From an uncultured Gammaproteobacteria bacterium (GTDB taxonomy: Bacteria > Patescibacteriota > Microgenomatia > UBA8517), in contig CAYSEQ010000001.1 of NCBI GenBank assembly GCA_964430475.1, positions 13,659-77,658 of the forward strand: 64,000 bases of DNA, in the 5' to 3' direction. Under the pieces are notes generated by a model. The model saw nothing but the letters and a program-made list of their open reading frames with translations, had not been told where the DNA came from and made no database searches. Both the position numbers and the translations under genes were made by a program. Shown here piece after piece: positions 5,882 through 36,435 of this stretch (the stretch's first letter is position 1; every line of letters starts with the position of its first letter).

Positions 5882-5954
5882 TGCACCCAGCAGGATTTGA
5901 ACCTGCAACCTCCTGTTCCGAAGACAGGCGCTCTGTCCATTAAGCTATGGGTGC
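5882..5954 (-). tRNA. tRNA-Arg (anticodon TCG)
   Basis: Reverse complement is GCACCCATAGCTTAATGGACAGAGCGCCTGTCTTCGGAACAGGAGGTTGCAGGTTCAAATCCTGCTGGGTGCA. It folds as a canonical cloverleaf with anticodon loop CTTCGGA. Confidence 0.8.
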
Positions 5955-6099
5955 TTGGTTTAATTATTTTTTTACCCTGTGTTTATTTTACACTTGTCGG
6001 TGAAATTTTTAAAGCTTCTCTAAGAAGAAGTGTTGAAAGTTTTGATTTTTTCTTAAAAAGGTTATATAGTTTATTTATTATCGGCTTTTTTGTTGGGGT

Positions 6100-8072: not shown

Positions 8073-8180
8073 TCTTTTTGAGTGTCTTTATTTTTAAGCT
8101 TATGATTAAATTAGATTTTTGTCAATATTATGAGATGATGATGATTAAGAAATTCCAAATTCCAAACAAATTCAAGATAC

Positions 8181-8240
8181 AAAATTCTAAATTCTTAATT
8201 CTTAATTCTAGATTCTATATTTTTGATTCTTGGTTCTAAA
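8181..8240. repeat. Partial inverted copy of the AT-rich intergenic repeat family (aattcttaattcttaattctagattc)
   Basis: Reverse-complement similarity to the gaatctagaatcaagaa...aagaatcaagaattt arm of the repeats at 13285 and 35610. Confidence 0.4.
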
Positions 8241-8416
8241 ATTTTTAACTTTTAACTTTGAACTTTTAAATTTTTTTATAGGATCGAAAGCTATATTTGC
8301 GCCTATAATATTTGTGAAAATGTGGGCATTTATGTTTAAAAGGTATTAAACTTATAAAACTAAAATATTGTTAGTGAGGAATTGACGAGTTTGTAGTAAA
8401 ATACATCATAATAAAC

Positions 8417-8710: not shown

Positions 8711-8753
8711 CTGCTTGGATTTAACTCTGAAAAATTGGAGCGGAGGCGGAACA
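8711..8753. repeat. Left 43-bp inverted repeat bounding the arsenic cassette
   Basis: ctgcttggatttaactctgaaaaattggagcggaggcggaaca. Its reverse complement at 12054-12096 is identical except for 2 mismatches. Confidence 0.7.
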
Positions 8754-12053: not shown

Positions 12054-12096
12054 TGTTCCGCCCCCGCTCCAATTTTTCAGAGTTAAATCCGAGCAG
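12054..12096. repeat. Right 43-bp inverted repeat bounding the arsenic cassette
   Basis: Reverse complement of 8711-8753 (ctgctcggatttaactctgaaaaattggagcgggggcggaaca). Confidence 0.7.
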
Positions 12097-12297: not shown

Positions 12298-12507
12298 CAC
12301 ACAACAAAAGGAAATTTAAATTTTATTCTTTATTCTTTATTCTTTATAATAAGAGATTCTGAATTAGACAAAGAGAGATTTGAATCCTCGTATTCCAAGA
12401 CCCAAGCTTTATTCAGATGTTCAGATTTTTGGATCTAAAGATAGAGTTCAAGGCCAAAAGAGAGGAAGATTTTAGTCATTTTCTAATTTAAAAAGTTTTT
12501 TGTTTTT

Positions 12508-13128
12508 TTACCGCGTAAATAAGCCTCTGAAGATTAGGTTTATATTTTGCCAAACTTTGTTTATCATATTTGAGCTTCTTAAGTCTTGAATCCCTAATGT
12601 GTTTGAAAATGAAGTTATCGGTGGGGTGACTGATGGAGCTATTCCCTCAACCTTGACACTTAATGTATCAGTTGCCGCCTGATTTTCCCGCCATTCTACT
12701 CTGACTAAGGCTTGGTATAGTCCTTCATTTTTGTAGTCACATATATCTTTCACAGAGTAAGTAGTAAAGAGGGTAATTTTTTCGTGTTCATATTGACCAT
12801 TGCTTTCACAATCAAACCTATAGCGAATTAAACCTGGACCCCTAATTCCAACTTTGGCAAGTAGGTCAACACCTGTTAGCGGTGCTTGCCCTGATATTCC
12901 ATTTGAATTCCAGGAATCCTGAGAACTTACTCTTCCAAGGAGAAGAACTCTGCCTTCAATAATTTTAGAACTTTCATTTTGTTTTGCTTCAGGGAAAGCA
13001 ACCAGTAGCCTTTGCCTATTCTTAACTAAGGACAAAGTTGTCGCAAGCGTTGTGGTAAAAAGAATTACGGCTAGTAAGCCAAAGATTACGCCTAAATGCA
13101 CAATTCCATTATTGTGTTGATGTTTCAC
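12508..13128 (-). CDS. Hypothetical membrane-anchored secreted protein
   Basis: 206 aa with an N-terminal TM helix. No family recognised. Confidence 0.35.
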   Translation of the reverse strand: MKHQHNNGIVHLGVIFGLLAVILFTTTLATTLSLVKNRQRLLVAFPEAKQNESSKIIEGRVLLLGRVSSQDSWNSNGISGQAPLTGVDLLAKVGIRGPGLIRYRFDCESNGQYEHEKITLFTTYSVKDICDYKNEGLYQALVRVEWRENQAATDTLSVKVEGIAPSVTPPITSFSNTLGIQDLRSSNMINKVWQNINLIFRGLFTR

Positions 13129-13284
13129 TCTAAATTTATTCTAATTAGATTTTTTTAAAAAGTCTATAGCATCTTGGACTTTGTGCTTTTAAGGTGGCAC
13201 CGACCTGAAAATCAAAGCTTGAAAAATCAAAAAAAGTGACAAACAAATTCATTTTTAGGAATTAGGAGTTGGTATTTTGGGATT

Positions 13285-13445
13285 AGAATCTAGAATCAAG
13301 AAGCAAGAAGTAAGAATCAAGAATTTTTAATCATTAATCATTTTTTTATAATTTTGGATTTTGAAAATTTGAATTTGTTTAGGATTTAGAATTTAGGATT
13401 TGGAATTTTTCTAGGATTTAGCTTGTCTGCCGACTAGACAAAAAA
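13285..13445. repeat. AT-rich intergenic repeat element, copy A, in a divergent promoter region
   Basis: aagaatcaagaatttttaatcattaatca...ttggattttgaaaatttgaatttgtttaggatttag...ttctaggatttagcttgtctgccgactagacaa. About 115-150 nt are near-identical to 35610-35760. Contains the hairpin TTGTCT-N7-AGACAA. Confidence 0.6.
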
Positions 13446-13556
13446 TTTAGAGATTAGAATTTAACACTTAGGATTTTGAGTTTCAAACTTTACTTATAAG
13501 TTATACCGTCTCAGTTGAGAAATATGCTTTATTTCATCTTAAACTCATAAATATAT

Positions 13557-14006
13557 TTGACAACTGGATTCTGGTGCCCTATAATACGAGCCTGTATGAA
13601 AAGAAAGTTGATTGTCTTTATTTTATTTTTGGCTGTTTTGGTATTCCTAAATTTTGCTCAACTTAATTTTCTTAAAGTTGAAGCAAAAAGTAATTTTCCT
13701 TTAACAGGGCCGATTACCCAACCTGTTACATACTTTATTAGAGGGTTCGTATTTTAAAGAGCCTTTGGATGGATAAGGCCTGCTAGTGGTGCGAAGGTTC
13801 AAGCTACTAATTTAGTGACCCATGAGCAAATTGCTACAGAAGTTTCCCAAAATGGAAGCTACGCGTTAGGGATTAATAAACCCGGTTTTTACAAAGTTAA
13901 AGCATACGATACGCGTGGGACTATTTTTAGACCTTTATTAAGATTCGTACGGATAAATGACCAAGATGTCAACGGAATAAACTTCTTTGGTATTTGGGTA
14001 AGATAA
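13557..14006 (+). pseudogene. Carboxypeptidase-regulatory-like domain protein interrupted by an in-frame TAA (13755-13757)
   Basis: ORFs 13557..13757 and 13815..14006 are in the same frame and separated only by the TAA. The joined sequence ...PITQPVTYFIRGFVF*RAFGWIRPASGAKVQATNLVTHEQ...YALGINKPGFYKVKAYDTRG fits the G.V.D..G.P..GA.V...G.Y.L...PG.Y.V pattern. Confidence 0.4.
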
Positions 14007-35501: not shown

Positions 35502-35609
35502 TTATTTTTAAGTATAGCAATAAATCTCTGTCTTAGAATTTGGCTCTTGACAACTTCGGGTTTTATTTGCTACTCTAGTATTGGAAAATTAAATTAAAAG
35601 TTTAAAGTT

Positions 35610-35800
35610 TTAGAATCAAGAATTAAGAATCAAGAATTTTTAATCATTAATCATTTTTTATAATTTTGGATTTTGAAAATTTGAATTTGTTTAGGATTTA
35701 GGATTTAGGATTTGGAATTTTTCTAGGATTTAGCTTGTCTGCCAACTAGGCAGAGATTTAAAATTTAGGGTTTCTTAATCATTAATCATTTTTTGAAAAT
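35610..35800. repeat. AT-rich intergenic repeat element, copy B, directly upstream of lexA
   Basis: Near-identical to 13285-13445 over about 115 nt. Carries the hairpin TCTGCC-N5-GGCAGA at the place where copy A has TTGTCT-N7-AGACAA. Internal 20-bp direct repeat ttaatcattaatcatttttt at ~35641 and ~35776. Confidence 0.6.
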
Positions 35801-35811
35801 TTGATACTTAA

Positions 35812-36435
35812 ATGGCATTAGTAGTTTATTCAAGACAAAAACAAATTTTAGACTTCTTAAGACAGTATATTCAGGCAAATGGGCATGCACCAAAACTTAA
35901 AGAGATAGCTGAAGCTTTGGGTGTCTCTTCGTTGGCTACTGTCCATGAGCATTTAACCACCCTTGAAAGTAAGGGGCTAATTAAAAGAAAAATCGGAAAA
36001 AATAGAGCCATAGAAATAGTTGGAGAAGATGTAAAACACTCTCCGGAAGGTGTGGAAGTTCCAATTCTAGGCTATATTGCGGCAGGTTCACCCATTGAAC
36101 CCTATACTGATCCTAACGCTTCGATGGATATACCTAGTAGTTTCGTTTCAGGCAAAAAAAGAACTTATGTCCTTCAGGTTAGAGGAGATTCAATGATTGA
36201 AGAGCAGATAAGAGACGGGGATTATGTGATTGTTGAACAAACAGAACAGGCAAATGATGGCGATATAGTCGTAGCGCTTCTTGATAATGGAATGGCCACA
36301 CTCAAAAGATTCTTTAAAGAAACAACCAGGGTAAGGCTAGAGCCTGCAAATGCCAAGATGCAGCCAATTTTTGTCAAAAATGTACGAATTCAGGGTAAGG
36401 TTGTGGGTTTGATTCGAAGTTATACGAGAAATTAA
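35812..36435 (+). CDS. lexA: LexA repressor
   Basis: 207 aa with an N-terminal winged HTH and a C-terminal S24 peptidase (VLQVRGDSMIEEQIRDGDYVIV...GDIVVALLDNGMATLKRF). Confidence 0.9.
   Translation: MALVVYSRQKQILDFLRQYIQANGHAPKLKEIAEALGVSSLATVHEHLTTLESKGLIKRKIGKNRAIEIVGEDVKHSPEGVEVPILGYIAAGSPIEPYTDPNASMDIPSSFVSGKKRTYVLQVRGDSMIEEQIRDGDYVIVEQTEQANDGDIVVALLDNGMATLKRFFKETTRVRLEPANAKMQPIFVKNVRIQGKVVGLIRSYTRN

Follow-up and report, generated by a model that had tools for sequence, protein, structure and literature searches.

The 64-kb window analysed here, the whole stretch of contig CAYSEQ010000001.1 introduced above, has a GC content of about 36%, comes from a Patescibacteria genome, and encodes a LexA nearest to Candidatus Woesebacteria proteins. 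It contains three intergenic copies, designated A, B, and C, of a repeat that we interpret, with a probability of roughly 0.75, as decayed, one-armed derivatives of a four-helix-bundle cassette of the intervening-sequence (IVS) type, lacking its open reading frame (ORF) and belonging to a patchily spreading class of selfish DNA. The three copies share a conserved AT-rich arm with loci from many phyla. In complete members this arm and an inverted partner enclose a gene for a four-helix-bundle protein, in others an ORF-less palindrome lies within a 23S rRNA gene, and copy B occupies a position upstream of lexA at which close relatives carry no element.

Copies A (13285–13447) and B (35604–35759) are identical at 146 of 154 aligned positions (95%) and differ in length by one 7-nt indel, equal to exactly one repeat unit, and one 1-nt indel. 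Within the core (13306–13422 versus 35619–35734) 114 of 116 positions agree, which bears out the near-identity over about 115 nt reported in the original prediction, made from the sequence alone. The inverted partial copy that it placed at about 8181–8240 corresponds to a diverged third copy on the opposite strand, copy C, with an arm at 8149–8194 and flanking arrays extending to 8276 (8149–8276 overall). Its placement of all three between divergent genes is likewise confirmed by the neighbours at each site: copy A lies between a 206-aa ORF (−) and a small ORF (+), copy B between a 548-aa ORF (−) and lexA (+), and copy C between a 132-aa ORF (−) and tRNA-Leu (+). The short tandem motifs that it described are also real and form part of a continuous 7-nt periodicity, detected as period 7 at all three sites by Tandem Repeats Finder (TRF). 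Across the whole window, lag-7 identity of at least 0.69 is reached only at the A, B, and C sites and at (TTTATTC)3.7 (12322–12347), a perfect array 24 nt downstream of tRNA-Pro that has no similarity to the family arm.

The 26-mer TTGAATTTGTTTRGRATTTRGRATTT is common to A, B, and C; it matches the window three times, whereas 100 shuffles yield 0.00 matches. With an nhmmer profile built for the family arm, the three copies are recovered at the E values listed below, with no other window match below E = 0.1, and the further 6.7 kb past the window's left end holds no additional copy. Logan contigs of the same genome break inside A (at about 13340) and inside B (starting at 35714), as expected for a repeat. 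The components of the three copies are as follows.

13285–13324, + strand: copy A (AGAATCA)5.7 array (TRF; lag-7 periodicity across 13267–13347)
13327–13342, + strand: copy A (TTAATCA)2.3 (TRF; 20-mer found again at 35640 and 35775)
13346–13415, + strand: copy A family arm, 5′-arm type on the antisense strand (nhmmer E = 5.5e-15; 26-mer core 13369–13394)
13423–13441, + strand: copy A terminal hairpin, UUGUCUG / loop CCGAC / UAGACAA (RNA minimum free energy, MFE)
35612–35637, + strand: copy B (AGAATCA)3.7 array, one unit fewer than in A (TRF; 7-nt indel)
35640–35655, + strand: copy B (TTAATCA)2.3 (TRF)
35658–35726, + strand: copy B family arm, 5′-arm type, antisense strand (nhmmer E = 2.6e-15; 26-mer core 35681–35706)
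35738–35754, + strand: copy B terminal hairpin, TCTGCC / loop AACTA / GGCAGA (RNA MFE)
35775–35790, + strand: additional (TTAATCA)2.3 block, past copy B and ahead of the lexA ATG (TRF; repeat family)
8149–8194, − strand: copy C diverged arm (nhmmer E = 4e-9; 26-mer core 8150–8175; inverted-repeat pairs)
8183–8276, + strand: copy C arrays (AATTCTN)n and (TTTTAAC)4.6 adjoining the arm (TRF; lag-7 identity up to 0.83 over 8161–8276)

Beyond the window, the 26-mer occurs in more than 120 stretches of a species-representative genome collection, where an arithmetic estimate gives about 0.2 chance matches even were all 596 Gb at 30% GC. The hosts among the matches listed include Elusimicrobia, Bacteroidales, Saccharibacteria and many other groups of the candidate phyla radiation (CPR), Acidobacteriota, and Planctomycetota, together with WOR-3, Aminicenantes, Dehalococcoidia, Nitrospirae, Gamma- and Deltaproteobacteria, and others. 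The fetched loci range from 30 to 65% GC (median 46%), against about 23% for the arm itself, and the arm of copy A aligns by blastn at 85–96% identity over 48–70 nt to arms from loci of many phyla. All genome records among the matches listed (L002–L121) are metagenome-assembled genomes (MAGs), with no cultured isolate, and several carry three to four loci each; either uncultivated lineages of sediment and groundwater hold most of this T/C-flavour arm family, or the order of the matches listed is biased. A mainly viral family was considered and rejected, the 26-mer occurring in only 5 stretches of 2.9 million viral contigs. A full-text literature search for the literal repeat string returned only chance matches in eukaryotic primer lists.

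The arm has a defined anatomy. Its outer part consists of four heptamer units of the form C-N-A-A-N-N-N (AAATCCT, AAATTCT, AAGCACT, AATATCT, AAACTCT, and others), after which the 5′ arm runs CTAAACAAATTCAA-ATG-ACC-GAA-ATT-CAA-AAT-TCA-AAA-C; the 3′ arm carries the core CTAAACAATATCAAAA instead of CTAAACAAATTCAA, so that the two arms are distinguishable. At positions of the units left free by the search pattern, G occupies position 2 in about 80% and TT occupies positions 6–7 in 90–94%, while three positions are variable. Outwards the arm stops abruptly: past the 26-mer, 95 of 131 arms continue for exactly two further units, and beyond unit 4 conservation is at background level. Among the 121 genome matches listed, about 45–60 are short palindromes with two inverted arms 45–80 nt apart, five have arms 370–430 nt apart, and about 50 are solo arms. 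With sense defined as the direction opposite to the 26-mer, and with crude ORF calls serving as gene calls in foreign loci, the solo arms do not clearly prefer one orientation relative to downstream genes (32/52 sense versus 25/52 antisense). At 16 solo-arm loci (L008, L035, L113, and others) a long sense-strand ORF reads through the arm, with N-terminal peptides like ...SEILNSKQIQNSK...; such arms may have been annotated as, or turned into, N-terminal extensions of host proteins.

The complete members link this arm to a protein family. At L010, L033, and L098 an arm is followed by a 121–126-aa ORF and an inverted arm, with the start codon and the first ~9 codons (MTEIQNSK) lying inside the arm. 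The three ORFs match PF05635 (23S rRNA-intervening sequence protein) at E values of 1e-13 to 6e-16 and TIGR02436 (four helix bundle protein) at 2e-20 to 5e-22. A reverse search of metagenome contigs with the protein clade yields 571 confirmed relatives. Among the best 80 loci from these, the 5′ arm lies over the ATG in 47, the inverted 3′ arm just past the stop in 39, both arms are present in 23, and at least one in 64; these counts are lower bounds, the profile having been built from T/C-flavour arms. In six metagenome contigs (L135, L139, L140, L144, L147, and L148) a complete cassette sits between a gene ending ...GKLADPRKY* and the next gene, flanks that read by eye, from their translations, as leuC and leuD. 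The presence of the same cassette in diverged leuC–leuD contigs suggests stable inheritance inside the operon.

A second link leads to ribosomal RNA. At L086, L093, and L119 an ORF-less palindrome lies within the Rfam match to bacterial large-subunit (LSU) rRNA, which is lengthened accordingly; because they lie within this match, the palindromes are intervening sequences in the classical sense. An experimentally characterised counterpart is the IVS of Coxiella burnetii, described as a selfish 428-nt element whose terminal inverted repeats form a stem cut by RNase III; it carries an S23p ORF with three tandem heptamers (GACAGAT) directly upstream of the ORF start, and the Xanthomonas homologue is a homopentameric toroid of four-helix bundles (PMC4990558). 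Since the Coxiella element shares inverted repeats, an S23p ORF, and heptamers upstream of the ATG with the complete cassettes, the anatomy of the latter is of the IVS type. No transposase is seen with the family, the four-helix-bundle protein being the only ORF inside complete members; this was noted without a systematic transposase search in the hosts.

Set against this anatomy, the window copies appear as relics of the 5′ arm. They keep the heptamer units and the core CTAAACAAATTCAA that precede or include the ORF start in complete cassettes. Their canonical sense strand is the − strand for A and B and the + strand for C, that is, towards tRNA-Leu. On the sense strand, A and B read CAAATTCAA-ATT where the canonical ...CTAAACAAATTCAA-ATG is expected, so that the start codon is changed from ATG to ATT. 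No partner arm with at most 8 mismatches of 26 occurs within 1.2 kb of A, B, or C, tblastn with three family ORFs finds no four-helix-bundle ORF in the window (nothing below E = 0.2), and the window contains no rRNA; its copies are intergenic and not seated in a 23S rRNA helix. Additionally, the arm is joined to (AAGAATC)n and (TTAATCA)n arrays, a unit confined to this genome among the fetched loci: the pattern AGAATYAAGAATYAAGAAT / (AGAATYA)n is absent from all other fetched loci, and the A/B-specific 21-mer CTAGGATTTAGCTTGTCTGCC has 0 matches in metagenomes.

These features can be arranged into a tentative history. In complete members the paired arms probably give a stem cleavable by RNase III, by analogy with the Coxiella element, which would make residence in rRNA or in operons tolerable. 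In the present lineage the start codon would have been lost (ATG to ATT) and the relic 5′ arm fused to the genome-specific array and a small terminal hairpin. Because the cores of A and B are identical at 114 of 116 positions with a one-unit slippage difference, this composite was probably copied recently, by duplication or transposition. Copy B would have come to lie past the −10 box of lexA and ahead of its ATG, disrupting the leader.

The lexA locus provides the comparison with an unoccupied site. The features in question are the following.

35547–35576, + strand: lexA promoter region upstream of B (TTGACA at 35547–35552, then TGc-TACTCT; aligned to L127, L128, and L129)
35812–36435, + strand: lexA, the gene with copy B in its leader (Pfam LexA_DNA_bind and Peptidase_S24; Woesebacteria homologues named LexA)

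Three relatives (L127, L128, and L129) encode a LexA 85% identical to that of the window and keep the order UvrB / hypothetical (−) / lexA (+) / iPGM / enolase. The divergent intergenic region measures 33 bp in L127 and L128 and 72 bp in L129, versus 310 bp in the window, and the element is absent upstream of lexA in all three. In the alignment, the relatives' promoter, CTCTTGACA-N17-TATAAA/G, and their ATG match the window on both sides of B. Given the conserved synteny, the short spacers of these relatives, and flanks that align around the element, copy B is an insertion that separates the lexA promoter from the start codon; the synteny across B also shows the assembly to be correct there. 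Only about 13 nt separate the −10 box from the lexA ATG in the relatives, and the insertion would thus have turned a near-leaderless lexA into one with a leader of about 225 nt, provided that the conserved promoter is still used. The −10 element of the window is altered (TGc-TACTCT, 3/6 consensus matches), and a consensus promoter scan does not list this promoter. No clear target-site duplication emerges when B is compared with the empty site of the relatives.

A more distant relative, L132 (79% LexA identity), carries a different, ~90-nt heptamer-like palindrome at 5905–5995, between the lexA −10 box and the ATG and thus at the same spot as copy B. It reads (AACTYAN)3-ATG-TTAAAAC ... TTTTGAGTTATAAGTTTCTAGTT and is not matched by the arm profile. 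Such elements may land in the lexA leader repeatedly.

Divergent promoters are predicted on either side of copy A, which lies outside both and need not be transcribed. A small hydrophobic ORF, with its ATG at 13597, is preceded at a distance of 11 nt by a perfect sigma-70 promoter, TTGACA-17-TATAAT (13557–13585); this spacing and the 13-nt lexA leader of the relatives suggest that near-leaderless transcripts are common in this lineage. On the other side, the 206-aa ORF (12508–13128, −) matches only itself among 5.8 billion clustered proteins, has no Pfam match, and is an ORFan. Because of this ORFan neighbour, and because ArsA homologues are scattered across phyla, no synteny comparison for an empty site is available at A. 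The ArsA gene belongs to a 3.3-kb block of higher GC (0.41) between tRNA-Leu and tRNA-Pro that encodes ArsR-like, ArsD, ArsA, and YlbF-like proteins and is bracketed by a 43-nt inverted repeat, 95% complementary (8711–8753 / 12054–12096). ArsA homologues 80–87% identical come from records labelled Parcubacteria, Omnitrophica, and Dehalococcoidia, mostly short contigs. The block, at 8.7–12.1 kb, looks like a mobile arsenic-resistance island.

Both full copies end in a hairpin situated 13–14 nt past the canonical arm end. The hairpin of copy A has an MFE of −5.7 kcal/mol as RNA (z = −2.3) and −3.1 kcal/mol as DNA, and that of copy B −10.1 kcal/mol as RNA (z = −2.5) and −6.0 kcal/mol as DNA. The original prediction had described these hairpins as having arms that differ in sequence while staying complementary, and had taken this for compensatory change preserving a structure. 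The hairpins themselves stand; the differing 5′ arm does not, as the 5′ segment TTGTCTGCC is the same in A and B. Three A/G transitions distinguish the two 3′ sides, and the best stem is displaced by 3 nt in register. The A/B difference is thus a register shift and not compensatory change, and two sequences are unable to demonstrate covariation. Of the eight A/B mismatches, five are concentrated in the final 17 nt, which close the duplicated segment. Across the family, a perfect hairpin of at least 6 bp starts 0–2 nt past the arm end in 24% of arms versus 5% of control windows, and one of at least 7 bp in 18% versus 2%, with sequences unrelated to one another. The flanks of 45 palindromic members are neither complementary nor duplicated beyond chance, and complementary in only 3 of them; insertion into hairpin loops as a general rule was accordingly rejected, and for the same reason the terminal hairpins resemble modules at the arm ends more than targets that were split.

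Folding of the whole elements gives z scores of 0.0 for A, −3.1 for B, and −0.3 for C. The + strand RNA of copy B forms a long interrupted hairpin in which (AAGAAUC)n faces (GGAUUUA)n through G·U pairs (MFE −36 kcal/mol), while the − strand folds poorly. In 47 palindromes, comparison of each arm with the reverse complement of its partner gives 73% Watson–Crick pairs, leaving 27% of aligned positions unpaired, and the order of the outer units frequently differs between the two arms. The mismatches of G·U type are exactly symmetric between strands (193 versus 193), and there is thus no sign of selection for pairing in one RNA strand. In 67% of unit pairs the two arms agree in unit flavour (CTAA, CCAA, or CGAA), versus 38% expected, counted over related loci that are non-independent, a concordance explained equally well by pairing or by inverted duplication with homogenisation. 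Since no conserved pairs hold the arms together, the family was modelled by a sequence profile rather than a covariance model. Rfam at gathering threshold, applied to the window and 20 related loci, returns only tRNA and rRNA matches.

Heptamer arrays also accompany four-helix-bundle genes outside this arm family. A tblastn search of plasmids of cultured bacteria with the four-helix-bundle protein gives 23 records at 35–43% identity, mostly cyanobacterial and annotated as four helix bundle protein. All eight genes inspected (L215–L222) are flanked by tandem heptamers, as judged by eye and by a lag-7 score without a formal control set, and six of the eight have strong lag-7 periodicity (at least 0.79) in one flank or more. 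The flanking heptamers are mostly inverted between the upstream and downstream sides, and the units are lineage-specific, as in the examples below.

Nostoc flagelliforme: upstream (AATTCAA)4; downstream (TTTTGAA)4
Planktothrix: upstream (CCCCAAT)6 (CGTAAAT)4; downstream (ACGATTT)n
Nostoc punctiforme: upstream (GTCGGAG/A)4; downstream (CGACYTC)5
Euhalothece: upstream (CAGTTAC/CAGTGAG); downstream (ACTGGTC)13
Chlorohelix: upstream (GAAGGAT)n, reaching into the ATG; downstream (CATAATT)n

The inspected sources are plasmids of Nostoc, Anabaena, Planktothrix, Pseudanabaena, Euhalothece, and Chlorohelix (L215 and L217–L222) and, for L216, Bernardetia; several of these genes adjoin cas1, cas2, or restriction-modification genes. 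Moreover, two IMG/VR contigs, L124 (arms at 1053, 4356, and 5621) and L126 (2456, 5759, 7005, and 7125), carry solo 5′ arms in one orientation, three to four per ~8 kb. A second array, (ACGAGNN)n, comes after each arm and runs exactly up to the ATG of the gene that follows; this holds for three to four consecutive genes, at which no Shine–Dalgarno sequence is visible. These arms look like portable intergenic leader modules.

Four other explanations were weighed against descent from an IVS-type cassette. The original prediction had proposed a shared operator array or promoter module, a small structured RNA, or a miniature mobile repeat, and had set the copies within divergent-promoter regions. 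A host operator array or shared promoter module co-regulating divergent gene pairs would account for three copies in divergent intergenic regions, one adjoining lexA, with tandem motifs that resemble iterated binding sites. It is nevertheless hardly credible: the relatives' orthologous lexA control region of 33–72 bp contains no repeat, the neighbouring genes (an ORFan, tRNA-Leu, and lexA) have no function in common, and the same arm recurs in dozens of unrelated phyla. Family members are found in every gene arrangement, including the interior of rRNA genes and operons such as leuC–leuD, so that divergent-promoter position is no family trait. The stable fold of the B + strand and the z scores of the terminal hairpins would suit an element that encodes a small structured RNA with the long G·U-rich and terminal hairpins as its functional unit, as would the three A-to-G differences in the 3′ arm of B, which would retain the A-type register via G·U pairs. 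This reading is very improbable, given that A and C fold no better than shuffles, that Rfam offers no match, that 27% of arm positions are unpaired with symmetric G·U-type mismatches and often a different outer-unit order between arms, and that promoter and terminator scans of A and B reveal nothing framing the element. Nor is it probable, to about the degree of the operator array, that the copies are simple sequence repeats (SSRs) made independently by slippage, with cross-genome similarity arising by convergence of AT-rich low-complexity DNA. A and B do differ by exactly one 7-nt unit, and some bacteria are rich in heptamer SSRs (PMC4692102, PMC4679880). Against this, the conserved core TTGAATTTGTTT and its inner sequence (GGTCAT, for example) are non-repetitive, the four outer units are fixed in 95 of 131 arms, and the 26-mer, expected less than once, is found more than 120 times and 0 times in window shuffles; the non-repetitive core and the fixed boundaries effectively refute convergence. 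A mobile repeat thus remains as the sole surviving candidate of the three, in the narrower form of a decayed arm of an IVS-type four-helix-bundle cassette.

The fourth explanation is compatible with that origin rather than exclusive of it. Here the heptamer arrays are functional RNA or single-stranded DNA (ssDNA) cis-elements, periodic sites recognised by a nucleic-acid-binding protein of ring shape, for which the pentameric four-helix-bundle protein itself is the most plausible candidate, or else by S1- or CsrA-like factors; the arrays would act as portable leaders for translation or processing, and the window copies as exapted leaders or regulators, for instance of lexA. The ATG of the four-helix-bundle ORF embedded in the array argues for it, as does base conservation at a fixed 7-nt phase with three variable positions per unit, a pattern that suits sites read by a protein better than a plain stem. 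The arrays reaching the ATGs of three to four genes in L124 and L126, the eight of eight plasmid genes flanked by heptamers, the location of TAACTGA just 5′ of Beggiatoaceae start codons (PMC4679880), and the position of B in the lexA leader point the same way. The solo arms, however, lack a clear orientation bias, the window copies end 90–240 nt from the nearest gene starts with A outside both promoters, the window has no four-helix-bundle gene, and lexA of close relatives manages without the element. On balance we regard this reading as unlikely for the window copies, though several times more probable than the three preceding ones.

Several observations also weigh against the preferred origin as decayed, selfish cassettes. 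The window copies keep one arm only, so that their membership is read from 60–70 nt at 85–95% similarity and from the periodic architecture. No transposase, target-site duplication, or other mobility signature accompanies them, and mobility here denotes a patchy distribution and a single insertion polymorphism. The near-identical 150-nt A/B composite is non-canonical and could reflect selection or gene conversion instead. Furthermore, 73% Watson–Crick pairing between arms is weak for an obligatory RNase III stem, the L124 and L126 arrays ending at ATGs look functional rather than like junk, and the restriction of the listed genome matches to MAGs makes the taxonomic breadth qualitative.

For this genome, the outcome is mostly a clarification: the repeats would be decayed selfish DNA and not a regulon signal, although the long repeat-derived lexA leader may alter SOS control. 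More broadly, a non-coding AT-rich arm is kept nearly base-for-base in genomes of 30–65% GC from many phyla, and it connects three subjects that are mostly dealt with apart: the intervening sequences of 23S rRNA, the four helix bundle proteins (a very large family, related to Avd), and the heptanucleotide repeats of bacteria. All four-helix-bundle genes that were inspected are bracketed by heptamers, whether they come from MAGs of CPR and Planctomycetota or from plasmids of cultured Nostoc, Planktothrix, Euhalothece, and Chlorohelix. It is conceivable, although we consider it doubtful, that PF05635/Avd-like four-helix-bundle proteins and tandem heptamer arrays constitute one cognate, cross-phylum system. 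A toroidal pentamer would bind about five 7-nt units per arm, as RNA or ssDNA, and thereby regulate both how it is itself translated and how the cassette is processed, spread, or silenced, while orphan arrays (A, B, and C and, by extension, the short tandemly repeated repetitive sequences (STRR), GGGAATC, and TAACTGA) would be trans-acting sites able to rewire host genes such as lexA. The functions of heptamer repeats and of S23p/IVS proteins thereby become one directly testable binding hypothesis, which, if true, gives a function to a large family of 'hypothetical' proteins and to a repeat class unexplained since about 1990. Of the ingredients, three were known before, each on its own: IVSs that carry an S23p ORF with heptamers upstream of it, extragenic four-helix-bundle genes, and heptamer SSRs. 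The literature searched, with incomplete coverage, holds no description of a near-identical arm family shared across phyla, of ORF-less or solo derivatives in ordinary intergenic DNA, or of a general bracketing of four-helix-bundle genes by heptamer arrays.

Among known systems, MITEs (miniature inverted-repeat transposable elements) and REP-like palindromes resemble the family in being short, non-coding, and multi-copy with an inverted-repeat architecture, in showing presence/absence polymorphism between relatives, and in breaking short-read assemblies. The family differs from them in having no identified transposase, RAYT partner, or target-site duplication, in an 'autonomous' form whose sole product is a helical protein of 121 aa without a known catalytic motif, and in sequence conserved across phyla and not just within a genus. 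The STRR of cyanobacteria are further heptanucleotide repeats, and the window copies share their trait of head-to-tail 7-nt units in varying copy number, A and B differing by one unit.

Heptanucleotide repeats have been described as GGGAATC in Xanthomonas and GGGGA(C/T)T in Nostoc (PMC4692102), and as TAACTGA in Beggiatoaceae, Cyanobacteria, and Bacteroidetes, in Beggiatoaceae just upstream of start codons (PMC4679880). Like the family, these are tandem 7-nt units, mostly intergenic and often near start codons, that undergo slippage in unit number and often form convergent inverted pairs (~70 pairs in Xanthomonas). They are described as lineage-specific SSRs of variable length without an associated gene, whereas the family has a fixed arm length, a non-repetitive conserved core, an embedded start codon, and a tie to a four-helix-bundle ORF. 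Neither PMC4692102 nor PMC4679880 mentions IVS or four-helix-bundle proteins. In text searches of the literature, again of incomplete coverage, a link between heptamers and a four-helix-bundle protein is found only for Coxiella. Avd, the accessory protein of diversity-generating retroelements, binds nucleic acid and reverse transcriptase. It is a PF05635-like pentameric four-helix bundle (PMC10053308) and falls in the same superfamily as the cassette ORF; it differs in that the cassettes examined have no reverse transcriptase or template/variable repeats beside them, and the window has no such ORF.

Comparison with the 23S rRNA IVSs (Coxiella helix 45, Leptospira; PMC4990558) shows both differences and likenesses. 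Most of the family, the window copies included, is located outside rRNA, in ordinary intergenic DNA or in operon spacers, the family arm (at least 26 nt) is conserved across phyla while the Coxiella heptamer GACAGAT is another unit, and the window copies are one-armed, with neither ORF nor long stem; RNase III processing of the family would be expected by analogy. In both groups, terminal inverted repeats surround a PF05635-family ORF in the complete elements, tandem heptamers stand immediately 5′ of the ORF start, ORF-less variants occur, and the taxonomic distribution is patchy, and three members of the present family themselves reside inside 23S rRNA genes.

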